Positions 6,791 through 55,000 of a stretch of DNA of 64,000 bases are shown one piece after another. Position numbers and translations under genes: made by a program. How positions within the stretch are numbered: the stretch's first letter is position 1; every line of letters begins with the position of its first letter. The notes below the pieces were generated by a model, which did not search any database, had not been told where the DNA came from, and was given only the letters and a program-made list of their open reading frames with translations. The stretch is taken from positions 26,969,216-27,033,215 of the forward strand of contig JAHRHZ010000009.1 in the NCBI GenBank assembly GCA_024137785.1, written 5' to 3'. Source of the stretch: Ginglymostoma cirratum (lineage: Eukaryota).

Positions 6791-7059
6791 AATCACCTGC
6801 AAAGCTGAATATTTCTGAGCACTGGAATAGCATTGTGAAAGGTATATATGTGAATGACACAGTTTATCACCTCCTCTTATTAACTTCTGCCCCAATCTAC
6901 CAGTTGCTTACGAACAGTCTGACTCACTGGTTTAGATAGTTCCAATTAATGATGACTCAAATTTGTTTTCTGGGCTTTAAAAAAAGATATTCTGGCAGCA
7001 GGAAAGCTGGGTGTGAATTTCTTCTTGGGTTTTCCAAAATGAGTACAAATGCCTCCAAG

Positions 7060-7320
7060 ATAAAAGGTACTGCAGATGCTGGAGAATCCGAGATAACAAG
7101 GCATGGGGCTGGATGAACACAGCAGGCCAAGCAGCATCGTAGGAGCAGGAAAACTTGACGTTTCGGGCCTAGACCCTTCATCAGTTCTGAAGAAGTTAAA
7201 AGTTCTTCATCAGAACCTTCATCAGTTCTGATGAAGGGTCTAGGCCCGAAACGTCAAGTTTTCCTGCTCCTACGATGCTGCTTGGCCTGCTGTGTTCATC
7301 CAGCCCCATGCCTTGTTATC
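7060..7320. mobile_element. Palindromic Penelope-derived insertion with 15-bp TSD
   Basis: Perfect 93-bp inverted repeat (7092-7184 and 7228-7320); flanking direct repeat ACAAATGCCTCCAAG at 7045-7059 and 7321-7335; arm sequence nearly identical to the Penelope 3' end at 56341-56467. Confidence 0.88.
7228..7258 (+). ncRNA. Minimal type I hammerhead ribozyme core (mirror copy on the minus strand at about 7154-7184)
   Basis: CUGAUGA-A-GGG(UCUAGG)CCC-GAAAC-GUC; has the conserved CUGANGA, GAAA and UH boxes with a palindromic ACGU stem III, as described for Penelope-like elements. Activity untested. Confidence 0.7.
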
Positions 7321-8267
7321 ACAAATGCCTCCAAGTCCTTTTAACATTGGAGTTTGTTGTCCACCGACAAATATGAAGAGGAAAGAAATGCAGAGTAAAA
7401 AATTGGGCTGCCCATGCACTATAATGAAAATTTTTAAAAAATCACTGGGAATACTCAGCAGATCTTGCAATATCCTTGGAAAGAAAACAAAGTTTTTCTC
7501 ATGTCAAATACGTCTTTTCTTCAGCATCTATTTGACTTGAAACATTAACTCTATTTCTCAAATGCTGTCAATCCAACAGAGTACGTTCAACACTTTCTGG
7601 TTTTGTTGCCCCTGTACTCTATAATTAGTTTGCCATTAACAGCCAAGACTCATTTCATCCACATAACAAGTAACCCAGTCTTCCTAACCCATGTGAATGA
7701 AACATTTCCCATTATTTGAGGTCAAAAAGCACTGAATAACGAAAAGACAAGAGTAGGATTCTCTTTAATAGCACATAATTATTTCACAGTGGAGTTTGAA
7801 ATTGATCTTCAGTGATACTGCACGATAGACAATTGTGCATCAGCAGTCCATGTCATCTATTTAGAATATTTAAAATATGTTAATATTTAACATATTTCAA
7901 ATAGCGCTGCTTTATTTAGTTTCTTGAACATACGTGCTTTTCAGGAGCTATGCTAAATTCTGAACGGTGATTAAATATGACTGCCCAGAACAAGTCTTTT
8001 ATGGACTGCAGCATGAAACAATTCTGTAATGATGAGCTGAAATTAACTCAAAAGTGACGTGTTCATAATATATAATTTACTTTGGCTACCTGTACCAACA
8101 AAATTCCTTACCACTGACAGATCTGATTTTCACCTCAGGTTATCATTTGAGTAGCCTTCAAGAGACCTCTCTCAGCTCGTCAGTCAGGCCCAGATACTAG
8201 CTAGCAGGATTTTGGAAGATTGTCTAGACTGACTGAGTTGCTATTGTGTTCAGATTCAATTCCCAGG

Positions 8268-8605
8268 TAGAATCATAGAATCTCCACACTGCAGATAGAG
8301 GCCATTTGGCGCATCGAATCTAAACCAACCTCCAAAGAGCATCCCACCCAGACCCACCCCAACCCAGTAACCCCATAACCCCATATTAACCATAGTTGAT
8401 CCACTTAGCCTGCACATCCCTAGACATTATGGGGCAATTTAGCATGGTCAATCCATCTAATCCATTTGGACTGTGGGAGGACCTGACAGAAATCCACACA
8501 GACACAGAGAGAACATGAAAACTCTACACAGACAGTCACCTGGACTTGAACCCAGCTCCCTGGTGCTGTGAAGCTGCAGTGCTAACCACTGAGTCACCAT
8601 CTCAC
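8268..8605 (-). mobile_element. HE1-type V-SINE
   Basis: Reverse complement of the element at 4935 (GGGCAATTTAGCATGG, GTGCTAACCACTGAG). Confidence 0.85.
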
Positions 8606-8969
8606 CCATAAATCACCAGTGATCTATATGGTCTTCCTTTCTAGTGATGCGATATGACTATATAACTTGCTAGGCCATTACAAAGTGAGCTGAAGAGTCA
8701 AATGTTGATGTGCTGTCATATCCTCATAAAGGTCAACCTGGTTAAGGGCAAGAGTTTTCCCTCCCTTGAGGGACATCAGTGAGCCAATGAGCTAGATAAT
8801 ATGAACCATCCATTTTGTAAAACAAATGAATCATTCCCTTTGTGGATGATACATCCTCTTCTGTCCTTGAGCCTGTTTGTCCAGAATGACTTTCAATACT
8901 CCTGTTCATTTGCATTCAACTTTAATTCATATTAGTCCTGTAACAAGAAGCGCGTCTTAGGGAATAAGG

Positions 8970-9450
8970 GAAAGAAAATCTTGAATATACATAAAACCTT
9001 TCACAAGCCTGGATGTCTGAATGTTTCTTTAGCCAATTAGGTAATGTTGAAGTATAGTTGTCATGATGTAGGCAACATGACAGCCACATTACACGTAGCA
9101 AATTCCAACGGTGGACATATTCTATTTGTTTTGAGACACTGAGTATATTATGTAGAATGATAATGATAATACTCTGTTTATAATGATATTGATCAAGGGA
9201 TAAATATTGGGAAGGACCCTGGGAACAACCCACCCCACCCTGTGCTTCTTCAGTATAGTGCCATGAGATTTTTTTAAACATCCTCCTGACAGATCAGATG
9301 GATCCTCCATTTAACTTCTCATTTGGAAGATTGTGCCTTTGATAATGCCACACTTCCTCAGGGCTAGCTTGTCAATCTAGATTTTTATTACCAATTCTTT
9401 GGCATGATCTTGAGCTCATAACTTCCTGATTCAGAAATAGGAATGCTACC
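8970..9450 (-). mobile_element. Old DeuSINE-like SINE
   Basis: TGCTTCTTCAGTATAGTGCCATGAGATTTTTT matches the reverse complement of the central segment; L2-like tail at the left end. Confidence 0.55.
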
Positions 9451-9939
9451 ACTTCCATCTCTCTGGGGACTATTTCTATAATTAATTTCTTTTACCAACA
9501 TACATTAGGGTGGATATAAACATTGTGTTAATTGTACCACTTTGACTGGAGTAGCTCCAGCTTCTGCAAGAAGGATATAACGGTAAAATGGTAATGTTAG
9601 CATCTCAATTCATATGGAGTCCATCTAACTAGATTTGTTTTTATAGCTGGTGCTGGTTGTAAAAGATCACCTTTACCAAACTAGATGATTCGGCTTACTG
9701 GTCGTCTAAGCTGGACAGATGATCCCTTGGGGTCTTTTAGAAATGTACCTTATCATTTCATTTATTGAATTGAATCATTTATTTATTGAAACATTTATTG
9801 TCACGTGAATTCAATGTAAAAATACAGTGAAAAGTGTGGACTTTCGCCGTACATATATGGCACCATACACATTAACTTAGAATGAGATTTAAAAAAGATA
9901 ACTTAAGAGAGTCCAACTTTCCTTTCCATTGCTGCAGTC

Positions 9940-10190
9940 CCACTTCGGGTTTTCCAGCCCTCGCCATGCCTCTGCCACAGTTCCGCTCCGGGTTTTTCAG
10001 CCCACACCATACCTCCACCAGAGTTCTGCTCCGGGTTTTCCAGCCCTCGCCATACCTCTGCCACAGTCCTGCTCCGGGTTTTCCAATCCTCGCCATGCCG
10101 CCGCCAGAGTCCCACTCTGCGTTTTCCAGCGCTCACCATGCCTCCACTAGAGTCCTGCTCCGAACTTTCCAGCCCTTGCCATGCTGCTAC
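9940..10190. repeat. GC-rich minisatellite, 43-bp unit, about 5-6 copies
   Basis: CGGGTTTT(C/T)CAGCCC recurs at 9946, 9989, 10032 and 10075, with more diverged copies after. Confidence 0.92.
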
Positions 10191-12212
10191 TGGCATCCGA
10201 CTTTTGGCTGCCTCACTGGCCTGATCTCACCACCACTGCCACCCTTGATCCGCCACCATCGCTCCGGCCCATGCTTGATCCACCGTCACTGGAGGAAACA
10301 ATCTGTGTGTTCAGCTCCCGCCATGTAGCTCCTGGCCATGACCCGGCTCCTTCCCAACTTCTTAGGTAGGTAGTTAAAAGGTGTGGGTGGGGCATAGAAT
10401 TACTACAGACAGAGAGAGAAGAAAGGGGCAAAAAAAGGGAGGACAAAGAAAGAAAGAGAAGGAGAACTGGCAAGGAGAGTGGAGCTCTGAATGGAGTGAC
10501 TCACCCTGCTGCCATTTTGCCAGAACAGACAGACCTCCACAGGGTATTAAACTTTCTAATGCGACTGCTGAGTAGTTGTCCCATACAGTAGTAGACCTGT
10601 TTACCCTGGCCACTGCTAACCTGAATCCCATCATGACATTCAAACGAACAATTTCAGAATGCCCAGAAATAATCGTAAGAAACAGGTGTAGGAGCAGTAA
10701 GAAACAGGTGTAGGAGCAGGACATTCAGCCCATCAGGCATGTCTTACCATTCATTGAGATCATGGCTGATCTTCTACATCAACACCATATTCCCACACCA
10801 TCCCTACATCCCTTGATACTGTTAATATCAAGAATTCCATCAATCTTTGTCATAGTATACTCGGTGTCTCAAAACGAATAGAATATGTCCACCGTTCTGA
10901 TAAACCAAGTAGAACATCCTTTATAATATGCCAACTTTTGACGTTAGCTCTGATAACTATTCTAAGGGCTAGATTTTACACAGCCTTACATGGTTTTGTT
11001 TAATCCAGTGTGCAGCCATCTGCCAGCTATCTGCTTGCACTGCTCTTACTACAATTATACAAGTGGCAGGGTTACTGTTGGGTGGCCTGCATTCTGGTGA
11101 GTAATTAATGCTCACTTAAGGGTCTGATGCTGCTGCCATTGGGAGTTAATTGGCAGCAGGAGAGGCCCATGCCAAGTGTCCAGTCTGGTAAGGTTCCTAC
11201 ATGGGATGGTGGTGGGTAGGGAGTGGTCCTTCTTTATTGCACCCACTGGAATTCTCCCTAAATATTTAACCACTCCTAACTACGGTTTCTCAAACCATGA
11301 CCCGACCACATCCCCCCCACCTGCCCTGCCGCCGCTTGTTGAGAGTTGCCTGCTTGGCACTGTGGTGAGACCCCTACACACTGACCCAGCATTCAAACCA
11401 ATACAGACGCTTGTCTGAAAGCCATTATCTGAGGTGGGACTTCCTAATCCAGAAGGCTGGGGGGTCCCATCTTAAATGTACTGATGGTACAATGTCAGTT
11501 AAAAGATTACAGGATAGCCAGTATTTCCTTTGGTGGACCTTGGGTTTCCTTTTGGCAAACTGTTTAGCTGGTAGGGTGCAGGGAATCTGGATCTTATACA
11601 ATTCAGCTCACACTTTATTTAACATTCTAGCTTGACTGGTGATGCATTTTGTCTCAACATTAGCATGAAGGATGCTTTAAAAGTCATAATCATAATATTG
11701 TCTCTGTATTATAAACATGTGACCTGAAGGTGTAAAGGTTTCACACTTAACCTTAACTGGTGTCACTTTAATCATGAAATGCTGATGAAACTACGCAGGC
11801 AAGTAGCTTAATAGTAGCCTAGGTACTGAAGTCCCTGCGACCTTGATATGTACATATTTGAGAAGCTATAATAGATGTCTACTGAACCTTTAAATACTAC
11901 ATTACCCGTGTCCAGGTCTTACATTATGGGAGCCAACAACTTCCTGTTGGCCAGTCATCCTTCCTTCAGTTCAAAAGTGCAGCAGTGTCAGAAAGCTACA
12001 TTGTCACTGCCTCAGAATGAAAGAAAGGAAGCCACCATCTATGACAGTGATGCCAAACAAGGTATGATTATGCACAAGCTGCTAATAACTTTTAAAGTAA
12101 GGTGGTATCCAGGAAAAAAAAATTATGTTCAAACATTTTAGTTTAAGGATTGACAAATAATAGACAATTTATGTTCCACTTTAATTCTGCTAATGTAACG
12201 CATATGAGATAA

Positions 12213-12536
12213 GGTGGCATGGTGGCTCAGTGGTTAGCACTGCTGCCTCACTGTGCCAGGGACCCGAGTTTGAAACCAGCCTGGGGTGACTGTCTGTGTG
12301 GAGTTTGCACATTCTCCTCGTGTCTGTGTGGATTTCCTCTGGGTGCTCCGGTTTCCTCCCATAGTCCAAAGATATGCAGGTTAGGTGGATTGGCCATGCT
12401 AAATTGCCCATAGTGTCTAGGGACGTGCAAAGTAGGTGGGTTAGCTATGGAAATTACAGGGATAGGGGGAAGGGTCTCAGTGGGATGGTCTCCAAAGGGT
12501 CGTTGTGCACCTGATGGACATTGTAGGGATTCTATG
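12213..12536 (+). mobile_element. HE1-type V-SINE
   Basis: GGTGGCTCAGTGGTTAGCACTGCTGCCTCAC head, V-core, internally deleted tail ending GATTCTATG. Confidence 0.88.
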
Positions 12537-14770
12537 TAAGTAAATATGTTTGAGAAGGACTTACTTCTATGCTTTGTGTACTTAGAAACATACTAAGAGG
12601 TGTTTGCTGAAAGCTTTTTACATGATTACATGATCCTTCTAGCCTAATGAAAGAAAGGTAAATTGAGGTGGGCTAACATTAATATGAATATCTGAAGTAC
12701 AAAGTTACAGAAGTATTGATTAAATACATTACGTATTTTGGAATTGCCATGTACACTGTGATTTTCTGGAACATTGCACAAATATGTTTTCATTTGTGCT
12801 CAGACTATATTATCTGTGTAAGAATTAGGCTACAAGGGTTAAATAACAGTTAACTGATTTCTGCGCTCACCGTAAGCAGAAATTCTGGCAAACATAGTAC
12901 ATTATAACTGTCTATGTCAACAAAACACCCCAGAAAGGCCACAGGAGTCAGAGGGATTGAGATACAGGGAGATAGACAGATGCTGACAAGAAGTGGAACA
13001 AACACTACCAGTTTGGAAAAAGGTTAAACAATCCCTGATTGGATGAATAAGATATTTATCTGGAATTAAAGTATACATTGTTTGTCATGTTTGCATGAAC
13101 CATAATTGGGATTCTACAATAAGATGCCTACATGTCTGAACTGATACAAAAGTACTGAAGTTTTCTGTATTCCCCAGAGTTTATTCTAGCTAGTCTAGAG
13201 TATAGTCTCCCTGCATTCAGCTGAAAAAATATTCTTAAACCTGTATGCAAACTCTTGTCATCAATCGCTAGAAGTAACACAGCATCTGTAACAAGACACA
13301 TTCAAGTTTTCTCGCAAAGGGTGAATATTCTTACGACCAGGTTAGGAGAGGAAAATGCGTCATCACCTTTTAACTCTCTCTCGGTCTGTCACAACAATAT
13401 TTTTTATTTCTTTTGAAATGCAACTGTATCTCACATCAAATAAAGATGTAAATAATTAGATCTACATGAAGTAACCAATTGCAGGACTTTCTTGACTGAA
13501 GAAAAGGAGAATTTTATAACTGACTAACCCTGATATAAAATGCAGGACATAAGTTAAAAAGTAAGAGTGTAGACAGAGGGAATAAAAGTAATGTCTTTAA
13601 AAATCTTGAAATTAATAGATTTTTAACCTGTGATCACAACTGTTTAATTGTTGACTGGTAATCTCAGCAGGTGTGAAGTTTATAGGTATCCTTGAGCTCT
13701 GACGAGTGAATAATGGTTTCCTCAATTTGCTGTTCGTTGGGCATTGTTTTTGAGATGCTGTGAGAGTCAGGCAATGAGATTATCTTCTAATGCTTGCGTA
13801 CAAATTAATTTTCTTTCTTTTTGCTCTGTTGCACAAAAGCAGCTCCTGAGATATTGTTCACTGTGTATTCCTGAGTTTGCCTTCTTTGTCTTTCCAAGAT
13901 GGCTACCTGGCAGGCATAGTTTTCCTCTCCTAATATGTGAAATCATCATATACATGTGAATTAAAACAAGAGATGCAAAATTCTTGATGTTAAGACAATT
14001 GTCTGGTTTCAATGTCTTTAAATAAAAGTAGAATTTGATTTATTCCAACTGGGTCTCAACAGCTCGCCTTACTGTGTGGTCAGGATCACTATAACTATTT
14101 TAGGTCCACATTTCTTACCTATTTAATATCGTTTTAATCCATTAAAAGTTTTAAGTGTAACATTGAGGTGGTGGATGTTAAAATTTGATGGCCCTTGTTT
14201 ACCACTGTTGTAACAGTTCTGTCTTGCACTCTAAGGATACACAGAAGTAAAGTAATGTAAGTATGAATACCACCGTCCCAATATTTTCCCTGAAATGTAT
14301 AATTTAACACACTGAGATAGTTGCCAAGAGATAGCCACACTTCAGATAAAGCATTGGTAAGGCCCCCACAGTTCTCACTGTCCATGGTAAAGCCACAAAC
14401 GGTTCAGAAAACTCACAATTTTCCCATAAGTCAGGCAATGCACCATGCTAATTCTTCCCGGGGTTCAGACACACCACAGTGCTAATGTTCCACACAGTTC
14501 AAAGCACATTTCCACATTTAAAAAAACTCATAAGTTTGGAAAATATATAGCTTTGATTTTGGTGGTCATAACAAGCAGTGACAATATTATTTTCTCAGTT
14601 TTGACCATACTTGTCAGATATGTATGTTCAGGTTAAAGGCAAGTCCTTGGCTTAGTGTCTTTTGGTGTCTCATGCTGAGCTGTCTTTCACAGTTTTTGGC
14701 AGTGACAGTGTGCTGATTTGATACCTACCTTCTCCTAGAAAGGTAGCTCTCAAATCAACCAGGACAGTGG

Positions 14771-14777
14771 TATAAAA
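14771..14777 (+). promoter_or_regulatory. Candidate TATA box of the scel-like gene
   Basis: TATAAAAG about 1.2 kb upstream of the ATG exon, followed about 130 nt later by a plausible donor (GATAT|GTGAGC, GT at 14906). No CpG island. The promoter role is inferred. Confidence 0.45.
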
Positions 14778-14799
14778 GACACACTAAAGCATTATTCTG

Positions 14800-14905
14800 A
14801 ACTATTCATCAGCCATCTAGCCAACTCAGATAAGTGACCCCCAGGGTCCTTGGTGGATCCATAGACATTAAACTGGGAACAACTTCCGCCCTTGAGAGGC
14901 GATAT
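14800..14905 (+). other. Putative non-coding first exon (5' UTR); start approximate
   Basis: Lies between the TATA box and a GTGAGC donor. The ATG exon has a clear acceptor (tttatttgcttgtag|G at 15936), so an upstream exon is needed. Confidence 0.4.
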
Positions 14906-16036: not shown

Positions 16037-19000
16037 GTTTGTAAGTTTTGATATTCCTGTTTCTACGTATACATGTATAAACCAGTTTATTCATAAATCT
16101 AATGTAACCATGTGAGGCTGAACATATTTTTGCCATAGTCCTCTAATTAATGTCAGCAGGGCTGTCATTGCAGGAATAAGTAATGTCACAAAACAACTAG
16201 GTGATAGAACAAAGAAGCTATTATTTAATGGATAATGCAAGCAGTGATGCACCGATAATCTTATCTGCCATCTCTTCGGGTATTCTTATTATTCCCAGGC
16301 CTCAATTATGTTGGGATAAAACTAACACAATTGCCCCTATTGTAGTGAGGTGTATTTTAAAATTAAACCAAAATAAAATCTACCTCTTTCACTCCTGTTT
16401 TTCTAACTTTTGTGAAATCCTTTGTCCACTGGCACGTTGTTACAGAACTTTCGTCGAGCTATCACAAAATGATCAAAGAGATTCCAATAATTACATTTCC
16501 TGTCTGATGATAACCCCATCCAAAATTTCTCCCTTTCAGTACCTGGAACTTTCTTTGTATTTGGAGACAGTGATCAAGACTCAACAGGAGTCAATGATGT
16601 TTGTTTTAGGAATTGTAACAGAGAAAGATATTGTTACATTATCATTGGACAAGTTAAAATGGCACCTTCGATAATCACTGGTAGGAACATTTATTTTGAA
16701 TTCAAAACAATTCATCCTCAAAAATAAAGGAGAAAACATTTCTGTAGGTTACCTGTTTATATACATTTTATTTCCTGTATTAATCTTTCCAGAGTTGGTG
16801 ACAGTTATTGACATGTTTAAAGTGAAACCACCTCAAGTGATGCACTTCTTCAAAGACTCTTTGCATCGTACTTAAAATTGAAACAAATATAATCAAACTG
16901 AAAACAAAAATTGACTTGGGTATTGTTTAGTCTGTGATCTGGAATTCCAAGCTTTAGAAGTTATGGTGAAGGTAAAGTCAACATAGTCCCAGCTTTCGTA
17001 AGAGAGTGACGATAGGCGTTGGTTTAACCTGAGGGTCACCACACCTTATGTGAGGGGAGAGGTTGAGATGCACTATGGGATCTCATGGAAGCCCCAATGC
17101 TAGTAGTCCTTGGGAATCACCAAGCAGTGTGATCTTCCAATGGACATTTACCCTGCTCTTCAGCATCCTCTGAAAGTTTGTCTGATTCTGAGTAAGAGCC
17201 AAAGCTCTTTGGATAGTTCTGGATGGGTACCCAGAAAATACTGGGAAGTAAAAATCCTGCTCTACCTCCCGAACAATTGTACAACTAGCTCCCCCAATGG
17301 TTCATACTGATTCCACCTCTTCCCCACCACCACCACAATCTATCCTTTCCTGATGCTCCAACTAACCCCCGATCAGACCCCATGAATACCCCCTACACAT
17401 CCTTACTCCCCCTGACCTTTCTAATCACTCTCCCACCAACCACCCTCTCCACACATCACTCTATCCAGCTGACACCATGCCACTTGTCACCTTACCCCCT
17501 TATTCGCATTACCCCCTTCACCCACCCCTCCCCTTACCTAAATACCCATCCTAACCCCTCACCCGACCTACTCCCTTTCCAACGTAGATTATCCATCCAA
17601 AATCTGATCCAATGCATTCCCTCATCTGCCTTACCCCCTCACCTATTAAAGTTGCCAACAGTGTCCTCCTTACTCACTTACATCATTAATCCTACCCTCT
17701 TACCCACCCTCTCCCCTCACCCACCCTACATCCCAACCCAACTTGCCCATTGCCTAATAAATTTACTCACTCTGCCCCATGATACATTTGTTTTCTCATT
17801 GTACCTCTTCGAGAAAACCTTTGGGACATTTAAAATGACCAGGGTGTGACAGCTAGTTTTGTAAAAAGGGAATGGGGTTTATGTTCATCCTCTACCTATG
17901 AAGCAGCTCCATTTCAGGTTCACTCAGGAATTTCTGGACAAGAAAGGACCAGAAATGTGGAACTCATGTAGCTGAGAAAAGCAGGAAACAAGTGGCAATC
18001 TGATGGTTCTTGTCACTGGTCGGAGATTTGGGCCATTGATTTTGTAAAGGATGCAGTGCAGATTTGCTGGTATGATACCAAGTGCTCAACAGATTAAGTT
18101 TTGAAAATGGATTACCCAGATTATTCAGTTGGAAATACAAGACGAAGGGATGATGCAACTGAAATGCTTAGAATGTTAAGGATTTGCTAGGATGGATAGA
18201 AATTATTTCATGTGGTAGGAGAATTCTAAAGAAGACATAAACCTTAACATTAGAGCTGGACCACTCAAGAGTGAAGTTAGAAAGCATATACAAAGAGAAG
18301 CATCTACTGTACAATCAGGTATTCTCTCCTAGTATAAAGGAAAGGTTTAGAGACCCTGTGAACTGACAATTTCAAAACTAAGTTTGCTAGATTTCTGCTA
18401 GGAAAATATATTAATGGTTATGGAACAAAAGCAGGGAGATGGAGTTGAGAGACAGATCAAACAGGATGTAAATGGAAGTCAGTACAGATAGTTGAGATAA
18501 CAAGGTGTAGAGCTGGATGAACACAGCAGGCCAAGCAGCATCATCATAGGAGCAGGAAGGCTGACGTTTTGGCCTAGACCCTTCATCAGAAAAAAGGTCT
18601 TAGCTCCTGTCCTTATATATTACTGAGAGTGGAGAGATTGTAAAGTAGAAGAGGAAAAGGACAGAAATAAAAGTAGTTTCCTGTAAAAAAGGACCAAAAT
18701 GGGATGCACCTGATGAGTTGAATGACGTTTTCCATTTCTACACTTTTACTTACTGATTGATTTTCTGCTTTCATCCGTGATATTGTTTTTACCATAGTTT
18801 TTTATAGATTATAAAATTTCAATTTCAGATGAAGACAGGGATCAGGTTATTCGGGAAACAAAGAAGAGGACTCGCTTAATAAACGATGGTGACTGGATTA
18901 AAAGCAAACCATCAGACGAATCACAGTAAGTGCTAAACCACATTCTTAAAAGAAGAATGTGGAACAATCGTCCTTTTGACTTTTCAAACGTGCCGCATTT

Positions 19001-22000
19001 AATTTATTAATCTGTTTGAAATGAACTTTAATAAATGGTGTTCTAACAAGGTGAGCAGTGATGAATCAGCTAATCTCTTTCCAAATCTTTTTGTTTGGTC
19101 ATGATATTGATTTAAGTTCTTTTTAGCACGAGGCTATACCTCTCTCCAACCAAAATGTAATTAATTAGACATTGCTTTAGCAGCTAAGGAGCAAATCATC
19201 TACGAAATCCTGCTCACTTCCTTGCTGAAGATTCCAGTCTATATTTAGCAGTTTTTCCACTGTTCTGTGTTTGTTTGCAATGTCCACTTCATCCTCAATG
19301 TAATAACTAATTACTGTATCCTGACATATGCCGGACCCTGATACTGGCCAGGGAAAATTTTGTTTAATTTCATCCTTTACAATGCATTTCTTTAATTTCT
19401 CTCACAAGTCTAACTAAACACCTCAATTTCCACCCTTTTGACAGCTACATTAAAATGACTGTTGACATAGTTGGACTCATAATCACTTCTAACCTCAGGT
19501 GGATCCTCTACTTGTCAGTTGCTAATGCTTTGAAAATAGTCTGCCATTTGCTGACTGACCATTCCATGGCAAGCACCAGCCTCCTTTCCTCCATCCTCAA
19601 TGTTGTGGTGAGGGTATGTTTTATTTTAAATTCTGTAAACATACATATTTAATTTAAAAAATTGTTCTTTATTAACAGGCACATGGCAACTGATGTCAAC
19701 TATGGAAAATCTGCACTAAGCCGAGCTAAATCCAGTGAAGGCCTGAACAGGTAAAAATATTCTTCTACATTGAATTTAGTTCTGCCTTGCACATCTTACA
19801 TAAGGGTAAAAGGACAGATCATAGAAACATAGAAGATAGGAGCAGGAGTAAGTCATTTGTATCAATGATAGCCACAGGTGAGGTTCCAGAAGACCAGCAG
19901 TTGGGTAATGTTGTGCCACAATTTAAGAAAAGTGATATGGAAAGGCCAGGGAACCATAGACCAGTGAGACTGAAATTGGTAGTGGGAATCCTGAGGGACA
20001 GAATTTACATGTGTTTGGAAAGGCAAGGACTGATTAGGGATAGTCAACATGGCTTTGTACGTTGGAAATCATGTTTCAATAACTTGATTGAGCTTTTTGA
20101 AGAAGTAATGAAGAGAATTGATGAGGGCAGAGCAGTGGATGTGATCTATATGGGCTTCAGTAAGGTGATTTATAAGGTTCTTCATGGTAGACAGGTTAGT
20201 AAGATTAGATCACACGGAGCACAGGGAGAACTAGCTATTTGGATACAGAACTGTCTCGAAGGTATGAGACAGAGGGTGGTGGTGGATGGTTGCTATTCAG
20301 ACCAGAGGCCTGTGACCAATGGTGTGCCACAAGGATCAATGCTGGTCCACTGTTTTGGGTCACTTATATCAATGATTTGGATGTGAACATGGGAGGCATG
20401 GCTAGTAAGTTTGCGGATGACACTAAAATTGGAAGTCTAATGGACAGCAAAGAAGGTTACCTCAGAATACAATGGGATCCTGATCAGATGGGTCAATGGG
20501 CTGAGGAGTGGCAGATGGAGTTAAATGTAGATAAATGTGAGGTGCTGCATTTTGGAAAGGCAAATCAGGGCAGGACTTTATACACTTAATGGCAGGTGGG
20601 AAGTGTTGCTGAACAAAGAGACCTTGGAGTGCACGTTCATAATTTCTTGAAAGTGGAGTTGTAGGTAGACAGCATAGTGAAGAAGATGTTTGGTATGCTT
20701 GCCATTATTGGTCGATGCATTGAGTATTGGAGTTGGGAGGTCACGCTCTAGCTGTACAGGTTATTGGTTCAGCCACTTTTGGAGTATTGTGTGCAATTCT
20801 GGTCTTTCTTCTAGAGGAAGGATGTTGTGTAACTTGAAAGGGTTCAGTAAAGATTTATGAGGATGTTGCCAGGGTTGGAGGGCTTGAGCTATACTATAGG
20901 GAGAGGCTGAATAGCCTAGGGCTATTTTCCTGGATTGTTGGAGGCTGAGGGGTGACCTCATAGACGTTTATAAAATGATGAGAGGCATAGATCGGGTAAA
21001 TAGGCAAGATATTTTCACAAGGGTGGGAGTGTCCAAAACTAGAAGGCACAGGTTTAAGGTAAGGGAGAAAGATATAAAAGGCGCCCAAGGGGCAACTTTT
21101 TCACATAGAGGGTGGTGCGTGTATGGATGAGCTGCCAGAGAAAATGGTGGAGGTTGGTGTGATTACAACATTTATAAGGCATTTATTTGGCTCTGTGAAT
21201 ACGAAGGGTTTAGAGGGATATGGGCCAAATGCTGGCAATGGGACTAGATTTATATAGGATATCTGGTCAGCATGGATGACTTGGACTGAAGGGTCTGTTT
21301 CCGTGCTGTATATCTCTATGACTCTATTTGACGCCTTGAACCTGGTGTACCATTCAACATGACCATGAAACATGGGTATGCTTATTTAAAGCATCTATTT
21401 GCCTAACTTCACCATGCTGTCTTGGTTATGTTGAGTGATGCAATACAAAGAAATGGTGCTTTTATTTAACTCCATACAAGATAAAAATAATTTATATATT
21501 AAACAAGAATAAATTGTTTCTTTTTTTGAGAAATGGAAATTTATGTCTTCAATAAATTTCAGTGAACACTGAAGGAAGTGTCCTTTAATAAAAAAATGAC
21601 TTTAACCCATTGTGCTCTTTTCCGTATTTGGCATGCTGACAGTAAAACACACAACATTGCAAAAGTTTATATTCACTATGCTACATACAAAGCACACTGA
21701 TCTCAATTAATTTGAATAGCTGTATCTCTTAAATCATTAGTCTGATCATGCACTTTTTAAATTTCGCATTCTTTTTAGAGTTAATGCCTTTTAGCTTAGC
21801 TTGGTGGCATGAAGTACATTGGTTGTATTATATTTCTACTAACATTTTCTGAGCTTGCCTTGTTTGTCCTGTTTACACAGTGATTCAAGTAAGACGAGTG
21901 GTTTGAAGTCAACAACAAAAGCCGATACCATAGATGGACGAAAAAGGTGTGAATTTATTAAAAGATTTTTCAAGAATCAAATAATATATTGCTGTGTTTT

Positions 22001-31000: not shown

Positions 31001-34000
31001 CCATTGGTTGGCAAATTGCTGTGTTTGGCTCATGTCAGATGGAATTCTAAGAAGTAATAAAAATGTTCACAAGGTTATGCTACCCTGAAGCACTTCTCAA
31101 CTTATGAACTACGTCTCTGAAGTGTAGTCTTGGTTATTTTTTGGGGAAGTACAGCAGTAAACGTACACTGACCTACGCCGAACAAGCAAACGTGAGATAA
31201 ATGACCAGCTATATGCACAGGGGTTGCTGGAAATACTCAAACTCATTTCCAACATGTTTTTAAAATTTCAATGTTAGGCTTTGAGCATCCACAATGCTTA
31301 TTCTTGCAAATCACCATTCAATTTGTTTTGCAGCCAAATGAACAGGAAAGCATGATGAAGCTGTTCTACAAATGTCTGTTGAGGCTATTTTTAACGCCTG
31401 TTTTGCCTCTGCTTCTGAACCTTTTGGGGTGGGGTCGGGTTGGGTTGGATTAGGTTAACATCTTACCCTGATCCACATTAGCGTACAAAGACTGCAAGAT
31501 CAGATCAACAAATTAAAACTGTGGAAACAACTTTGAAGACATAATCACTTGTCAACAAGTAATTATGGAATAACGTATCCCTTGCAAAACTTGTCTTGCT
31601 AACATAAACTGAGTATGCAGCAGTTAAAACGATTAGAACAGCAAAATGGGTTACAATCAAGAGACAAGCATGGTTATCATTTCAGAGAACCTTTTTTGCA
31701 ACATCAGTGTTTGTTTGCAATGTGAATAAATTTCACATGCCAGATTTCTCAAAGACCAGCAGAATGGGTGAAGAAAACAGTGATGATTTTATAAAATATG
31801 AGTTTGGAAATTATTGAGGTTGTTCACTTGCTGGCTGAGCTGGCTTGTTCTCGTTCAGACGTTTCATTACCGTGCCAGGTGACGTCATCAATGGACCCTC
31901 CGATGAAGCGATGTTATTCTGCTCTGCTTGGCGTAGAATAACGTCGCTTCATCGGAGGCTCCATTGTTGATATCATCTAGCATGGTGGTGAAACGTCTGA
32001 ACGAGAACAAGCCAGCTCAGCCAGCAAGTCGACAACCTCACCCACAGCCTGAGCTACAAATCTTTGCCAAAACTTTAAATTTGGAAATTATTGAAAGCAG
32101 TCAGAGGATGATTTCAGAGATAGCTAGTTACAGACAGGGAAAATCTGGAGGAACTATTTAAGCAAAGTAGTGGAACAGTTTAGTTGGAAGCAATGTGAAA
32201 AAAAATGATATGATTGAAGTAAAAAAGCACCCAGCTTTGCTGGTCAAAGACTCTGAAGTACGGATCTTCTTTGAGGCATTATGGACTTGCTATTTCCATT
32301 TGGTTTTGCATGCTAGTATTATATTTACCACATGTAAATTATATTCATCATGCTGTACAAAATGCACCATATAATGAGATAACTTTACGTCAAAATTTCA
32401 CTTAATTTTGATGAATTGTTTGAGATCAGAATTTTATGCTGGATGATTTGTAATAATTAAGCATCCACTTTAAATTTGACATGTGTGTTGTGGACCACAT
32501 GTTATTTAATTAATTGTGATATGAGTAAGCTCAGAAAATAGGTGCATTAGATCCTTGCATCAGACTGAGTAGTATGTGAATAGGTAATGGGATCTATGAT
32601 TTACTTAAGGAGGGATAAACTTGAATTGGAAACAATTTAGAAAACGTTTGCTAGGCCAATTGTCTAGGATAAAAGTGCAGGCTTACATTTAAAGGTTGAC
32701 AAAAGTTGGGCTTCTATTCATTAGGATTTTGAAGAATGTTAAGTGATCTTATTGAAGCAAGATTTTGAAGGGCAAGTCAGGGTAGGTGCTGAGAGAGTAC
32801 TTCCCCCTCCTCATCAGGGAATCTAAAACTAGGGATACTGTTTACTAATACAAGGTCTCCCATTTAAGACACAGATGAGGAGGAACTTTTTCAGAAGTCC
32901 TTAATCTTTGGAATTCTCTTCCCCAGAGAGGAGTAGAGACTGGGATAATTGAATATGTTTGGGGCTAGGTTAGACAGATTTTTGATCCACAATGGAATTG
33001 CTGGTTTTGGGACCAAGAAGAAAGGAAAACTTGAGGCTACAATCAAATCAGCTATTATCCTAGTCAATGCAAAGTAGGGTCATGGAGCCAAATGGATTAT
33101 TCATACTCCTCCTCCTATTTTTTTTATGATGTTACCACTTCACTTGCTCATTTTTTAAAACTGCTCTTGGCTTTCTGTTCTCTTGATATTTAATTTAACT
33201 GAGATGAACTTCTGACATCCCATTGATCAAAACGGCTGCCTACCCATCTACCATTGACAGCCCAACACATGATTCTGTCACCTCCAGGTTCAATTGTGCC
33301 ATTGCTTTCCTGGCGATCTTCACTCCACCCATAATCTTCAGCTCATCCGACATTCAGTTGTCCATATCAAGCACCAGTCTCACTGATCCATCATTTTTGA
33401 ACTCATGAGGAACAATTCTCCTCATGGGAGAGTCTAGGACAAGAGGGATTAGTCTCAGAACAAAGGGGAACCGATTTAAAACTGAGATAAGGAATTTCTT
33501 CTTGCAGAGGGTTATGAGTTTTTAGAACTCCTTGTCACAGAGACCCATGGGGGCAGAGTCATGTATATTTAAGACCGAAATAGATTGATTCTCCTAATAA
33601 TCAAGAATCTAAGATTATGGGGAAAAGGCAGGAATGTGGATGTAAGAAATATTGAATCAGCCGTGACCCCATTGAATGGCAGAGCAGGCTCAAGGGGCTG
33701 AATGACTTACTCCTGTTCTGATTTCTTATGATCTTATGGACTCCCAACAGCTCAAATTTAACATTTCAGTCAATATTTGAATAAGTCTGTGGTCTCAGCC
33801 CCTTCTGTCTTTCTGGCTTCCTCTAGTCATACAACCCTGCTTAAGGGGAGGCAGTGGTCAAGTAGTATTATCACTGGACTGTTAATCCAGAGGCCCAAGT
33901 AATGAGCTGGGAACCCAGGTTCAAATCCGACCACAGCAGATGGTGGAATTTGAATTCAATAACAAAAATCTGAATTTAAGAGTCTAATGATGACCACGAA

Positions 34001-46000: not shown

Positions 46001-49000
46001 AAATCTTGTACCTATGTAATAACATATGGATAAGAAAATTTCTTGTATCTAATACAAGAATTGTGTATTGATGTAAACGTCTCTCTCAATATGGGAGCAA
46101 CATTCAAGCTTGGATGAATTGGATGGATTTGAAGTTGATAGGACAAATGCTGAAATACTTTGAAGCTCCTGGACATTGGACCAAGTGATGATAAAATCTG
46201 GAGTTTTTGTCTGTGATCACTGATGACCTGAATTCATGACTTTTGAATTATAGCAGGGAAACGTGCTTCCACGACAAGTGAAAATATTTCATCCTGTTAC
46301 TTTAGACTGAAAATGTGAAGTTCTTGAAACAGCATAAAGAGTATAGTAATCCAAGGTGTAGAATTGCATGGTAGGATTGTAAGAAAAAGCGAATGAATAA
46401 TCTTTTCTAAGTCATTATCCTTTGCAGTGGCTGGTTGAAATGCCATTTTAATTTTACCTTCTCTTTTGAATGGCAGCAGTGAGGACTGGGACAATACCAA
46501 TTCCCATACCACGACAAGCACAAAGACAACTTTTGAGCCAAGCTCCAGGTATTGCACAGTACAATTAAGATAGTCATATCAAATAATATCCAATACAGTA
46601 AATTCATGGCTTATCAATCTTTAGTCTGGCTTTTTATACAATTTCAATTCAATAAAACTAAAAATCAGGAGAAAAAGAGAGGCTGACCATTTTCTCGCAT
46701 CTGTTTTAGCAAACAGCTAAGCAAAACTACCCCTTTGTTTCCTTTCTAAGTGTTTCTTTCCACCTCTAAATCCATGAAGTTTTAACTGAATATAATATTG
46801 CTCTCTGGGTATTGGCATTATCTTTAGCAGGGGACCAATTGCTTAATTGTTAAGTTAAGACTGAGTATCATCAGGCAACTTGATCATGGAGGGCCACAAA
46901 GTTAGACTTAAAAACATATTCACTCATGTCTACTGTTCAGCATTCATTACTGGTTAATCCAATAAAGTAAGAGTCAGTTCAGTTATAAAGTCTGGAAGAA
47001 CTTTTCCCTCACAATCTCCATAGCGCTGGGCCAATGTTAGTCCTTAGCAGCTTTTCTGGTTGAGAGTTCCTGATTATTTTTAAAGATAGTCTCTCTCAGG
47101 AATAGGTGAGAAATAAACGTTTGTTTAGATTAGATTTTGATTGCTCTGAGGCTGACGTCTTGAGGATTTCAAGAAATCTAGCCTCATCTAAATAATTGTG
47201 GCCAAATGCCAATAACCTTCATCTATACAGACCGCTCACCCAATGAAAGAATCAACATTTGGCTGGCCAGTTTCATGAATAGGCTACCAATGCCCCCAGT
47301 GGATACCAGCATGGATTCTGCTAGAGATTTCCACAAGTAGACAATTAATCTATAAAGGCAGGTAAACACGAACAATATTGTGCGAACATATACAATACTT
47401 ATCTTCCTTGTGTCAATGGAATGTCTTGTGTCCATTCATCACTTGAGGTGAGATTAGTTAAGATACTCCTGACCCCAACCATAGACTCTCCTTTTCCATG
47501 ATATGAGGCATAATTTTCTTTTTTCTTTGTCAAATCTTTCTTCAGTGCTGCAGAATACTTTCCTGGTCTATTCTTTTTAGTGGCCAAACTTGTTCCACTT
47601 GTTTGTCAAAAACATACCTTAATTTTCTAAAAACCACAAGTCATTCCAATACTATTCTATATCTCGAGGCATTTCTCATCAGCAACTCTTCCTTCTCTCC
47701 AATCCAAATAAGGAGTGCAGGAACAGAGAATTAAAAAGGATAAGCTTTTGCTGTTTTTGCTACTTTGTTCAAACTGCACCTTGTCTCTTTCTTTTTACAT
47801 TGAGTTGCAGCATATAATGGGCACATACTGACAAGAAAATAATGCAGATGCTGGAAATCTGAATCAAGAACACAGTGCTGGAGACACATAGCAGGCCTGG
47901 GAACATCCGTAGTCAAAAATTCAGAGTTAATATTTCAAGTTCAGTGGCCCCTCATTAGGTCTGACAAAAGATTACTTGTTTCAATATCAACCCTGTTTTT
48001 GGCTCTACAGATGCTGCCAGCCCTTATTATCTGTTTTTGTTTCAGATAGCATTAGATAGCAACACAATGTTGCTGGATTAGTAATCCAACCAAAGACATG
48101 GGTGGAAACTAAATTTGAGTGAAATTTTAGAATATGAAGCTAGTCCTGGCAATGGGGACCAGGAAAACGACCAGTGATTGTTGTAAAACCCATTTGGTTC
48201 TTGAATGCCCTCAAGAGAAGGAAACTGGTCATCATTACATGGTTTGGCCCACATATAGGCCCACAACAGTGCAGTTGACTCTGAAATGGCAGAGCAAACC
48301 ACCTAATTCAAAGACCATTAGAGATTGGCAACAAATGTTGGTCTTTCCAGCAATTCCCACGTTTTATGATAGAATTTAAAAAAGAAACTGGGGGACTACC
48401 AGTTCTGCTTTCCATATAATCACAGAAACATCAACTGATGTAATTTTGAGAAGCTACAGCTATTGTTCAGTCCCACAATGGATGCGTTTCATGGTTGCAT
48501 TTATATTGTCTTTAATTCTCGATTCAGTGAATGTTTCATGCAGATTGAAGTCCTACACTTAATGGTACAAGAAGAATAATCTGACAAAAAAAGGTCAAAT
48601 AGGGAGAAATCCGTAAATGACCCAGGAAGAAGCATGGAGATTGTATCATATTTCCTTTTTATGCTGGAAGATAATAAATTTAAAACCCATCAACACTTCT
48701 TTCTGGAACATCTTTAAGTAAATGCAATCATGGAAATCTTTGATGTTTTTAATTAATTACCTCTGATGCTATAGAAATGCTTTTACTGACTAAGGTAACA
48801 CAATGTCAATCTTAGTGAGAAGCAATAAAACCATACTTTAAGAATCACTTTGAACCACCATAAATAAGGCATTGAGTTGTGCCATGACTAAAATTTGAGG
48901 CACAAATTTATACTCATTCATAATTGACATAAATGCAGGAACCTCACATTCTCTAGTCTTCTGTCTGGTGGAATGTTCCTAATAAATAGCAGTGTTGTCA

Positions 49001-52000
49001 TGGAATTCAAAAAAAAAAGATCCAGGGAAAACAGAATAATCTGACAAAATAAAAATGGTCAAGTAACCAGAAATCTGTAAATAATCCAGGAAGAAGCATA
49101 CATTGAAAACTGATACTACTTTGCATTTATGGCATTGTCACATCTCACAATGTCAGAAAATTACAGAGAAGTTTTGTAAGCAAAATTAGAAAATAAATCA
49201 TTAATTGTGTCTTTATTGTAGGTCCACGAGTGAACATGATCTTCCCAAAGATGAACCTTCAACTTACAAATCATCAACTTCTTATACTAAGTCAAGCAGG
49301 ACCTTCAGGTACAAACTTTGTGCCTCTGTCAACATTTCAATGTGGATCAACTGAAATTACCTTGCCCTTAATTATGGCCCAAAACAAACCAATTAGCATG
49401 TGCCTTAAAAAACACTAAATTGTAGCTTAACTAAAAAGTGTGAGATCTGTGCAGACAAGTGGCTAATTGTACACTAATTTCGTGAAAACACACTGAGAGT
49501 GGATGGATTTCTGGAGGATCAGGCTGTCTGTGAAGTCATTTAAAAATGTCAGCTGGATCCCAGTTTTGAAGATCTTGCTTCCATACCTGATGTTGGCAAC
49601 TTTTGCCAGTCCAGTTTAAAGGTGCAGGTAGAGAGCCCACACCCTACGTAACCAAAAGGGCTGACTCTATTGCAGTGTTAGACACTTCATAGCAGTTCTG
49701 GAATTGAGCCAGATTCTAGATGATTCGTTATTCACAGGCCATCAACAGGAGCTGTGAACCACTGTCTGGATTCAAAAAACTATTGAAAGGAAACTTTAAA
49801 AGGTCCTGCCCATGCCCAACACACCACTTCATGTTCCACATGTGTAATCCAATACACTTCCATAGTCCTCATGCCACTTCCAGACTTCTTATTCCTTAAA
49901 AATGGCTTCCTTGTCTTCTCTGTACCCTCCATGGACCTTTCATTACCATTCAGCATGTAATCAGTATGTACAGAAACACGAGGCTTAGAATATAAATGGC
50001 AAGAGTTGAAATGATGAGAAAAAGATATTGAAACTTGCTTTGTCAAAAACTCGCTGTTCCTACTGCACTGTAAATTTGTCAATCAGACCAGGCCGATATA
50101 TTATAAGTCAAGAAGTTTTAGCCAGCTCACACCTCTTAACATTTATAAAATAGAACCTAGAAAAAAAACGTAGCATAACCTTTTAAAGAAATCAAATAAG
50201 CAAGTAAACACTCCCTTGAGTTATCCTATCAGACCTCTGCTGTGCTAATACATTTGTAAATCTTGGAGATCAGCCAGTCATAGTAAATTCATCTGGGATC
50301 TATATTAACAGAAAGGGCTGGCCAGACATTTGGTTTTCCCCTAAGAACAGGTCTATGAGGGGTGAGGGCTAAAGGATGTGATAGCTTCTAACATACTGGG
50401 TCAATGTCCCAGAAAACTAACCCGACTCCATGATCTGTATCTGGGGTCATTGGGCTGAATTCTCTCCTGCCCTACTTACCTCTCCTTGGAGTGAAGATTG
50501 CCATAACAGGGAGGTGGTCTGCTAAATCCTTGTAAAAAGCTTCCATGTATCCTTAAAACGACACAGGGGTAGGAAATTTGGCATCTAAAACAAACACAAA
50601 TGATGTGAGTTCTTCCTCCAGTGTTCAAGAGTTATCATTGAATCAGTTTGGCCTTTGCTCATATGGGTTACGTCAAGTGTACAGCACAGAAACAGGCCCT
50701 TCAGCCTTTCTTACCCTACTTCATCTAAATCTACCTTCCTCACTTGTTGAGTTTGAGTGTTTTGAGTTTGAAAAGTTGCACACCACAACTGTGTTGATGT
50801 AGAAAATATGAGAGATAGGAACGGCACTAGGCAAATATGATTCTTAAATCTGTAGTTGTGTCATAATTGTGGCAGGCTCACTATGCATAAATAAGGATAA
50901 TTTATCTGTTTTTGTTGTCATTATATCTCTATTATTTGCCATGGACTAACTTTATATTTACCATTTTACACAACTGGTCAAAAGCAACACTGACCTTCAG
51001 TTGATGTTAGTTGATCCTTTAACAATTCACATGGTACAACACAGTGCATATTCATCAATTCATGGTAACTATGTTCAGTGAGATGTATGCATCCAGTTAA
51101 TATAAATATCTTCATGGATGCTTGTCTCTTTCAGCTCTAATTCACTTAATGATAAAAGCCCAGTCGTAGAACCAGAACGGTATGATTCTCGATCATCCTA
51201 CAAGGAAAACAGGTATTTTTATGAACTCCTATCACCCCATGTCCTTCACCACCTTTCTCAGACACACACTTGCTCGCTTGCTCACTCACTCTCCAAAGTC
51301 CTGCTTGTGCCTCATCATCCTATATTATGTGAGGTTATTGTAAAGACAGGATTATTCCCATTACCTCTCCATGGTGGAATAGTCTGATTTGACTCACCGG
51401 CCGGACACACATACGCGAAGAATGTTTAATGGACGGCTAATAAAACCAGTGACATTAATTTGTTTCGCATAAGTTCAACTGACAGCCTTTTGCCTCAGAC
51501 ATTAGGATCCAATTAACTTCTTATCAGTGGAAAATGCATAAATAGATTTTGGGCCCATCCTATAATGGCTCTGTTGATAAACCATATCTCATTATTTAGG
51601 GTTGATGTGACCAACAGGTTGGTCTTTCTGTGGTAGTAAATGTTATTAACATTTCCTGTTGCTGATGTGGTGCTTCGCAATATGGGAGCTCACAGCAGCA
51701 ACTCAGGTGCAGAGGATTCTTAACATTTGTTATCATTTTAGTATGGCTGCAATTCAGAACACTTGTACGTACCAACGAATCCCAGATGCACAAAGCATTT
51801 TTAGTGTACACGGAAGTCCCATGCACCTGTGTGCTTTTGCTAATGTGAAGGTAGGCAGCTAGGCAGTGCCACAGTTGATCAATAGCAATAATTTGTAGAA
51901 CGAAAGTAATGAATCAATGTAACGAGTGGCAAGTAACGAAGATGAATGTCAGTGCAAAAGACACAATTTAATATAACAGTCCATATGTTGAGGGAAGGTT

Positions 52001-55000
52001 GTGCTATACTGATTTAACCAAAGATAAGGAGAGGGGAAGAGTATTAAGCATACAAGGAAAAATCCAACCAGTTCTCTGGTGGGAACGGAGAAATGGAAGT
52101 TACATTTTCAGACCCGGACGATTATAAATCTACTCTATAGACATTATCATGTTTGACCGTATGTCTGGGAAGCTTTACTGATTATATTATCAGTGCTTAG
52201 AAAAAATGCAGATAAATATTGGGGAAGTGAGATATGGACTAATTTGTTGCGCTCATTAAAGGAACAAAGAAAAAATTATGATTAGGGACTAGAGGAATAT
52301 AGGATATATTTTACTGAGATGCAACAAGTAATTGATTATGTTTTTATGTCAGCCCTCCAAATGAGCATCTTTCCGAGGATGGTGATTCATACCGATCTCC
52401 AAGTTATTCAAAGATCAGGAACTCCAGGTATGCTGCCATTTTCAACACTGTACTCAAATTTGTTTTCTTCTTGAGCATATAACGACTTTAAAAACTGGGA
52501 TGGCCATCCTCAATTCTGACTTGAAGCAAATGTTAAAACTCACTTTTGAGGTCACAGAAAGTTAATTGGATGGACAGATTGAAATTTGGGGTAATATTTG
52601 ATGATGGTAAGCAGAGAGAATTGTTGTAAATTAAATGCACTGTATTGATATTTCTCATTATCTGAATAGCGCTCTGAAATTTAGCACGCCTGTAACTGTG
52701 AAGTAACATATCTGCTCAAAAATGGTTTTTTTGCAACAATTACTCACAATAAACCTATCTTGTCTCCTGGGCCCATAGTCCTTTCCATTCCAACCTCAAA
52801 ACTGATAATTCTTTATTTCATTCAATGGTGCTAGCAGCGGCCCAATTTTTGCCCTGCCTTCCTTCTGGGTTTGTCTGTCACACACTGACTCCGTGATAAG
52901 GAGATACTGATCCCAATATCTGGAACTCATCCAGTCACTCTATTCTGGCACAATCTCTCAAATTTCAAATTACAGGTGAGGTGAGATGTTTAAGGGAGAC
53001 AATTCTAAATGCTTAGGTCCAGTTAACTGTGAGCATGCATCAGAGGAACAGAACCTCATAGGGATAGAATTTGAATCTTGCTGTGCCTGGTTTTGACTGT
53101 AACAGGTCATAATTTTGCAGGCCAAAGCCATGTCAGTTGTATAAGGCTATTGTTCTGAAGGTGTGAATGTTCATGTTGCCTTGAGTTCCATCCAATCTCA
53201 TAATGTTGCACACAGTCTGAAACGGGAGACAAGGAGTTCACCTTCATAGGGAACAGATGATTTTGTACAAGATTCAGAGAGTCCTAATAATTACTGAATG
53301 TCTGAATTGTAACGTAGTTGTACTCAGTGATATCATGCAATAAACCATGGTATTAACTAGAACAGTTCCTATTTGAAAAGACTCCACCTTGGAGGATCTG
53401 ATACCGTTATTATACAGTCCCTAGGCAAAGTGTAGACAAAGATGGCAGCAAGCTATCTCAAACAGTTCTTGCTCTGACCCACATAATGGCAGAGGTAGCA
53501 GATACCACAAAGTGGTAACAGTGGTAATCAGGGCAGATACTATATCGTGACCCAACGAACTCTGAAAAATCTCAGATCTGAAATTGACTCAAACTTCTTT
53601 CACCTCTGGCACAGCTCAAGGCATTTAAACTGCCATTACAAATAACAGAAGAGGTGCCAGCACCCTATTTGTTAACTTCTCTGTCTCGCTCCTGCTTCTA
53701 ATACTAAACCCTGCCATTCCACCACCTTCCCCCAAAACTGTGCCCTGCTGATATTTAAAAAGGTTGGTAACTGGTGGTGAAAGAACTGGCCCTTGGCAGC
53801 TTGTGTCTTTAGTTCTTGTAAGGCTACAGGCCTAGTTTTTGTTTTGGCCTCAGGTTTCCTTGTTTCTACTGTAAGCAAAGCGCCAATTTAGGCCTAATGG
53901 AAAAATATAGGTCCGTATGATATAGTGAAAGAATAACAATGCAATTAATTCTTTGTTTCTATAGCTCATCTCTCTCTGATGGCAAGAGTCCTGCAAAAGT
54001 GATAAGTTTAACCACTGCCTTCACCAGCGCTGAACAGTAAGATGAAACATATTATTTTTAACGTCCTAATTTTGTTGAGTTTGTCTACTATAATGTTGGC
54101 ATTCATCAGGAATGCTAAGAGACAATGATCCAGGGTAGATACCAAGGCAATCACAGGTTTGTAACAGCCTTTAACTATGTGCTGAAAGATGTGCCAAGTT
54201 GTGAGACAAAGTAAAGGTACTTGCATTGCAGTCCAATTAGCTTAAATAAAAACCAAAAGAACTGCGATGCTGTAAATCAGGAACAAAACCAAAGTTGCTG
54301 GAAAAGCTCAGCAGGTCTGGCAGCATCTGTGAAGGGAAAAACAGAGTTAATGTTTTGGGTCCGGTGACCCTTCCCCAGAACTTAAACGTTAACTCTGTTT
54401 TCTCCTTGACAGATGCTGCCAGACCTGCTTTGCTTTTCCAGCAACTTTGGTTTTGTTCCCAATTAGCTTAAACCTTGTTTTGTTTTTGGAATATTAAATA
54501 ATAAAATGTAAAATTACACACAGCATGATTTGTTGTTTTGAAAGTGGCAATTGTGGATTCAGTGAATTAAAAACCTTGGAGACTTATCCAATTCAATACA
54601 GGAGGATGAAAGCATTTTCTGTTTGCAACCTCCTTTCATTTTCTAAGTCAGTGTTTTCCAAACCTTTTCCTGCTGTGACCCTTATTTTGAAACTTGTCAC
54701 AACCCTTCCGTGAGAACTGAGAGAGTGGTGGGTTGACCGTGATAGTGGGTTTGGTTTGGAGTCGGTGATGACTATGAGAGTGGAAGACTGTTAGAGAGGG
54801 AGCACAGCTATTCTGACTCAGCCAGAGCTCCATAGCAGGCTGTACAGCCTCATAACTCTCAGTACATTACACCAAATTCTCAGCCTGTGATCCCGCTTGG
54901 GGTTGCTAACCTCAAATTGAAGAATTCTGTTTTAAGTGAAGTAAGTTAGGTGCAGTTTTTCAATCAATTCCTGATGTCAAATCACCTCTATCTTGGCATG

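Follow-up and report, generated by a model that had tools for sequence, protein, structure and literature searches.

How does a short DNA insertion come to carry the same end twice, head to head, with an unpaired tail on one side only? The window analysed here, a 64,000-nt stretch of the Ginglymostoma cirratum genome, holds three such hairpin inserts (E1, E2 and E3), each enclosed by a target site duplication (TSD). In the reading that we prefer, at a probability of about 0.8, both ends of one staggered cut copied the same RNA, starting from two fixed sites 34–40 nt apart.

Structure of the three inserts

E1 lies within an exact direct repeat of 15 bp (left TSD 7045–7059, right TSD 7321–7335, both on the plus strand). 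Its tail of 32 nt at 7060–7091 (minus strand) corresponds to the stretch of family F1 that separates the proximal 3' end from the distal one. The tailed arm, which is the 3' end of F1, follows at 7092–7184 (minus strand) with an intact hammerhead core at 7184–7161. The centre at 7185–7222 is a filler of 38 nt, made partly of short local copies (the longest 12 nt), and the tail-less arm at 7223–7320 (plus strand) has a second intact core at 7228–7251. In E2, exact 15-bp TSDs at 31803–31817 and 32080–32094 (plus strand) enclose a tail-less arm at 31818–31920 (minus strand), which is the 3' end of family F2 with a decayed core, a tailed arm at 31935–32040 (plus strand) and a tail of 39 nt at 32041–32079 (plus strand). 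E3 has exact TSDs of 14 bp at 54233–54246 and 54459–54472 (plus strand). A tail of about 36 nt and the tailed arm together occupy 54247–54381 (minus strand); they form the 3' end of family F3, and the arm starts 3 nt before a decayed core. The tail-less arm of E3, at 54384–54458 (plus strand), starts at +23 of the core, past most of it.

An inverted-repeat search of the window aligned the arms at 7092–7195/7217–7320 for E1 (97% complementarity), 31815–31920/31935–32040 for E2 (89%) and 54275–54367/54372–54464 for E3 (86%). The three inserts make up three of the four inverted pairs in the window with arms of at least 30 nt and a spacing of at most 600 nt. The exact repeats, the inverted arms and the one-sided tails of the original prediction are all confirmed. 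Its hammerhead boxes hold for E1, where the CUGAUGA...GAAA core is intact on both arms, while those of E2 and E3 are decayed. E1 is a true insertion, since in a related organism a contig of 410 nt (from one of four runs examined, and covering the E1 site only) joins 7044 directly to 7321 and has the 15-mer once at this empty site.

Two decayed, F3-like fold-backs had been listed as older examples. One, old1, lies at 7425–7610, and its left part is also found in the related organism; the other, old2, lies at 47836–48035 with its tail on the left. In head-to-head alignment with the E3 family, both score above every one of 300 shuffles, but a secure TSD is lacking in either case. The candidate for old1 matches at 12 of 15 positions and overlaps its own tail, and no TSD was recovered for old2. 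The window also contains a longer, 5'-truncated F1 copy at 55771–56471 (plus strand). After its GIY-YIG coding sequence (55771–56145, Pfam GIY-YIG, E 2e-6) come the arm, hammerhead and tail known from E1, and the parent family of E1 is present within the window in this copy. Two solo tail-less arms lie on the minus strand, an F1 arm at 18494–18592 that starts 3 nt before the core and an F3 arm at 304–394; no TSD was found for either.

Other repeats accompany these copies. Weak inverted repeats at 58655–59194 and 60360–60712 have no match to F1–F3. A 72-bp tandem repeat at 5970–6863 has open frames on both strands and continues on the minus strand into what we take to be an L1 ORF1-like coiled-coil stretch, and 19739–20589 presumably holds fragments of CR1/L2-type RT coding sequence. 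Another abundant repeat of about 250–290 bp, probably a SINE, is found at 4930–5275, 8268–8606 and 12213–12475.

Parent elements of the arms

A search of the genome with each insert gave many copies; 40 candidates were scored of 1428, 4525 and 4752. Longer genomic copies have the same layout as the inserts, with coding sequence included. The F1 arm lies downstream of GIY-YIG in 19 of the 20 GIY-YIG loci fetched; the domain matches Pfam GIY-YIG, a CX4CxxC linker precedes it, and RT motifs lie upstream in the long copies. F3 arms have their own GIY-YIG bodies upstream (tblastn), rarer than those of F1, which rules out F3 as a body-less family. F2 arms follow a different GIY-YIG-like stretch, judged by eye, whose 80-aa piece has no Pfam match. 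CxxC sits between the motifs in both F1 and F2. The arms of F1 and F3 are about 70% alike, so the three families proposed at the outset stand as families but represent just two clearly distinct kinds. One near-full-length F1 copy (G000:C16, about 40057180–40060440) has an inverted tailed arm, a 557-aa open stretch and an apparent short TSD.

F1 shows the pLTR arrangement: its arm and tail continue into the 5' portion of the ORF. A putative hammerhead core with its stem II is conserved in 127 F1 and 54 F3 arms. No Rfam hammerhead model matched the window, and sub-threshold miRNA hairpin matches alone were returned. The arms of E1–E3 are the 3' ends of elements that code for GIY-YIG, that is, EN+ Penelope-like elements (PLEs); the features of this class that were found are GIY-YIG, the pLTR (in F1), the inverted 5'-truncated copy with a tail of 30–40 bp and the minimal hammerhead. 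All three hairpin inserts are confirmed as real and as shortened end-pieces of Penelope-type elements, in agreement with the GIY-YIG/RT origin first suggested for them. A CX2-5CxxC linker upstream of GIY-YIG marks the Neptune and Nematis clades (PMC8557442). The linker of F1 is of this kind, and F3 is grouped with F1 by likeness. We take F1 to belong to Neptune as against Nematis, and F2, from the likeness of its motifs, presumably to the Penelope/Poseidon clade.

Units that are short, abundant, palindromic and TSD-flanked could also be read as MITEs, the arms serving as the terminal inverted repeats of a DNA transposon. This reading is refuted by where the arms come from, as they are ends of RT/GIY-YIG elements. 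The tail at one end makes the termini asymmetric, TSD lengths range from 11 to 20 bp, the centres vary and the lengths form a continuum. The units do not fit the profile of a MITE (symmetric terminal inverted repeats, a fixed TSD length, uniform copies and a cognate transposase), and the probability left to MITEs is negligible.

The architecture is already in print, and so is the tail (PMC3846280, PMC8557442, PMC11167929). An inverted truncated copy with a one-sided tail of 30–40 bp is typical of EN+ PLEs (PMC3846280, PMC8557442, PMC8969392), and the fold-back layout with its one-sided tail is also covered in PMC11167929. Published insertion units share with ours the head-to-head copy, the one-ended tail, the TSD around the unit, the pLTR hammerhead and heavy 5' truncation (PMC3846280, PMC8557442). 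They differ in the TSD peak, which is 8–10 bp in the rotifer examples of these two papers and 14–15 bp here, and most units here are stubs of 130–280 bp without coding sequence, unlike the EN+ PLE units described in the same excerpts. The minimal type I hammerheads of metazoan PLEs share with ours CUGAnGA, an extra base, stem II, GAAA and a palindromic minimal helix III (PMC4209133), whereas the cores of E2 and E3, known from sequence alone, are decayed. In Schistosoma, opposite-strand hammerhead pairs lie 100–700 bp apart (PMC4209133). Eulor hairpin repeats, compared through an excerpt of PMC5753468, showed no link to these units. The excerpts of PMC3846280 and PMC8557442 contain no statement of a strict tailed/tail-less pairing or of a front-edge pile-up, and a literature search of main texts, mostly open-access, returned no paper on shark stubs, a 14–15 bp mode or strict pairing. 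What is added to the published layout is a set of quantitative constraints on its mechanism. The steps that produce tandem and inverted PLE structures have been called undefined (PMC8557442), and the constraints are that each target end uses a single start site, that both arms stem from one template lineage, that the stagger is close to 14 nt and that copying halts at the front edge of the ribozyme.

Paired ends and target duplications

The census covers 985 kb of readable sequence outside the window, made up of 9 blocks, their neighbours and 100 kb beside the window; 11 of the 20 first blocks read as N and were dropped, so it is a non-random sample. In it, 265 arms were counted, and 64 pairs lie head to head no more than 900 nt apart. 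This is 1 per 15 kb for all pairs, as against about one hairpin per 13 kb of the window in the original prediction, and 1 per 25 kb for the short gap-free pairs (39 of 64). If the sample is typical of the 4.36-Gb genome, there would be roughly 170,000 short hairpins, a rough extrapolation. Such stubs mimic MITEs and microRNA precursors (the sub-threshold Rfam matches), and they coincide with assembly gaps, with an N gap inside 10 of the 64 pairs. Gap-free units of the same layout span 131 to 2560 bp continuously, coding sequence included. The short hairpins are the low end of this continuum and not the separate minimal class that had been proposed.

Each family has two fixed 3' ends, 34–40 nt apart. 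Counted from the core, they lie at +93 and +127 in F1, at about +75 and +115 in F2 and at about +97 and +135 in F3. A tailed end is joined to a tail-less end in 44 of the 45 classifiable census pairs (in 19 of the 64 the two ends could not both be classed), and in 114 of 119 pairs once search-selected loci are added. The sole exception in the census is an inverted tailed arm whose neighbour, a near-full-length copy, has its end at the proximal site.

A TSD is present in 32 of the 44 tailed/tail-less census pairs, as against 0 of 284 mismatched flank pairs. It was recovered in 78 of the 114 pairs and was not recoverable in 36. The lengths range from 11 to 20 bp, with 14–15 bp in 36 of the 78 and 13–16 bp in 54, and the mode is 14–15 bp in all three families; TSDs were scored as maximal repeats with one mismatch allowed, so these lengths are slightly overlong. 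Among 27 exact TSDs, 11 are of 14 bp. The staggered cut of 14–15 nt that had been predicted agrees with this mode, but the spread of 11–20 bp leaves a fixed stagger unsupported. TSDs are 65% A+T, and no strong motif beyond A+T richness was found at the target sites. Solo arms have a TSD in 20 of 79 cases (control, 0 of 191); since single-arm insertions carry the same kind of TSD, copying from two ends is not obligatory. Both F1 3' ends fall in the same 7-nt motif, TTATCTC.

Partner arms share their subfamily variants. At diagnostic sites of F1, mismatches number 91 of 755 within pairs and 1326 of 3515 in age-matched cross pairs (12% versus 38%); the corresponding values are 44 of 219 versus 357 of 1138 in F2 and 83 of 461 versus 769 of 2386 in F3. 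Non-diagnostic sites are nearly equal, 4.6% within F1 pairs and 5.4% across. Low mismatch at the former together with near-equality at the latter points to one template lineage, from which the arms then aged separately, and the near-equal non-diagnostic difference argues against later homogenisation. The shared variants fit one RNA, and they follow equally from two RNAs of one dominant source.

Priming from both target ends is the best model for this sequence record. In its inferred steps, an element protein, probably a dimer, would nick both strands about 13–15 nt apart at an AT-rich site. One target end would prime at the distal site and copy tail and arm, and the other would prime at the proximal site and copy the arm only. 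Both cDNAs would stop early, and their tips would be joined bluntly, through a few shared bases or by short local re-copying. Fill-in would then yield the TSD. The proposal that both ends prime on the element is retained in this form, with the 114 of 119 pairs in its favour; its placement near the ribozyme is not, as priming would take place about 75–135 nt downstream of the core. L1 twin priming is comparable: a single RNA is copied from both ends of the target and the two products meet head to head, with upstream, non-duplicated sequence as the inverted part. Here, in contrast, each arm is a duplicate of the other, as just 34–40 nt separate the start sites.

The protein of Poseidon from Anolis carolinensis (PAc) is predicted to be a dimer, and in vitro it cuts and extends both strands and begins reverse transcription at two internal sites between which the tail lies (PMC11167929). 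AT-rich targets are a further shared feature, and hammerhead cleavage is dispensable for PAc insertion (PMC11167929). Nowhere in the excerpt of that paper are the two start sites assigned to opposite ends of a single insertion. Primer–RNA homology is reported to be absent, whereas many F1 TSDs here run 1–5 nt into the element end, a raw observation.

Priming could instead be one-ended. A single cDNA would snap back or self-prime, possibly on an antisense template, and be recopied into the inverted arm, with nuclease resolution leaving the tail. PMC3846280 proposes self-priming and, for head-to-head structures, favours it on an antisense template; PMC8557442 proposes that EN-mediated resolution leaves the tail. 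Fold-back copying likewise predicts both arms from one template as well as local re-copying at the centres; the 60 young junctions without a gap, taken from the census and from search-selected loci, include 22 that are blunt or overlap and 11 with a local copy of at least 7 nt. However, the tail-less arm has a fixed end point, at which solo insertions with a TSD terminate as well, and two start sites bounding the tail have been shown in vitro (PMC11167929). A simple snap-back copy is unable to extend past its own template, whereas either arm may be the longer one, the tail-less arm reaching further in 19 of 32 census pairs and the tailed arm in 8. In long asymmetric pairs (e.g. L025 and L057) each arm has sequence absent from the other, in both polarities. 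We consider one-ended priming unlikely.

Front edge of the hammerhead and the fold-back centre

Arms start preferentially at the front edge of the core. Starts at −7 to 0 of the CUGA core are found in 27 of 116 F1 arms and 49 of 114 F3 arms (neighbouring 8-nt bins 5 and 11 in both families), and just 5 of the 114 F3 arms reach beyond −16. No front-edge pile-up was seen among 12 F2 census arms, and a start peak near −35 in F2 was set aside because the loci had been chosen by likeness to E2. Among 32 census pairs, both arms start at the front edge in 5, one arm in 13 and neither in 14. The expected relation of the inversion point to the CUGANGA box is upheld to the extent that the centre lies near the front edge of the core in 18 of 32 pairs; it does not extend to the ribozyme cut site, predicted near +28, as starts at +25 to +32 occur in just 5 of 116 F1 and 6 of 114 F3 arms. 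The upstream sequence varies from copy to copy, which rules out a common spliced first exon in front of the core. Folding of single arms does not surpass that of shuffles (z −1.5 to +0.2).

Two-ended priming may also account for the short class. Because arm and tail stand at the front of the RNA as well, priming on this front copy would run off the RNA about 3–5 nt before the core, and we lean slightly towards such run-off as the source of the short copies, which are likely to be dead on arrival. With an RNA end placed at about −4, most of the front-edge starts are accounted for; the alternative is a hard RT stop. Of nine loci picked for the 5' part of the ORF, three have an arm starting at −4 or −5 after the ORF piece, at three different points. 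One front copy begins at −3 and another at 0, and several begin within the arm. One front copy of the nine (L276) extends 385 nt upstream of the core, so −4 is not the start of every template. In D. virilis the start site is 46 nt before an intron (PMC2377424) and the intron end abuts the ribozyme (PMC4209133), which places the start not directly at the ribozyme and counts against the run-off. In the direct composites L275, L281 and L282, a second arm, with its start at −4 or −5, is attached to the front arm, the tail and 200–500 nt of ORF start, and this suggests template jumping after run-off.

As a further alternative, the short hairpins might propagate themselves as a non-autonomous family resembling SINEs or retrozymes, each hairpin being transcribed whole and mobilised whole by the Penelope protein. 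Non-autonomous hammerhead-bearing PLE derivatives are known (bioRxiv 10.64898/2026.07.22.740005). The rarity of F3 arms beyond −16, the enrichment of front-edge-starting arms for one older F1 variant and the recurrence of the 37-nt centre of E1 (7177–7213) at two other loci (L112–L114; G000 C144 and C250) would all agree with such a family. However, all three other copies of this centre abut 400-N assembly gaps, twice facing each other across one gap, and chimeric extension through the perfect arm is plausible; the recurrence is probably an assembly chimera, as against a daughter copy of a hairpin template. The centres listed differ from one another, and coding bodies are found in all three families. 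Non-LTR retrozymes are likewise short, pLTR-derived, hammerhead-bearing and non-coding, in one chondrichthyan genome too, but they form head-to-tail arrays (bioRxiv 10.64898/2026.07.22.740005), whereas the units here are single and head to head. No tandem hammerhead arrays were found among the 55 close neighbours of the census, of which 47 are head to head, 1 is tail to tail and 7 are tandem. We regard a self-propagating family as very improbable.

A bolder extension of two-ended priming is that the dimer always spends one RNA on both ends, that leader-bearing stubs are transcribed and remobilised like SINEs, and that some 10^5 hairpins feed dsRNA into small-RNA pathways. If so, each start site would have one subunit, and stubs primed on the front pLTR copy would retain the full leader with its internal promoter, but we hold this to be a long shot.

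Three minor features were noted at the front edge. F1 census arms that start at −3 are enriched for one older variant (CTGAAGA). A variable T run precedes these arms, as if A's had been added at the cDNA end. At −4 there is an initiator-like match, CCATTT in F1 and TCAGTT in F3, to what we take to be the initiator consensus.
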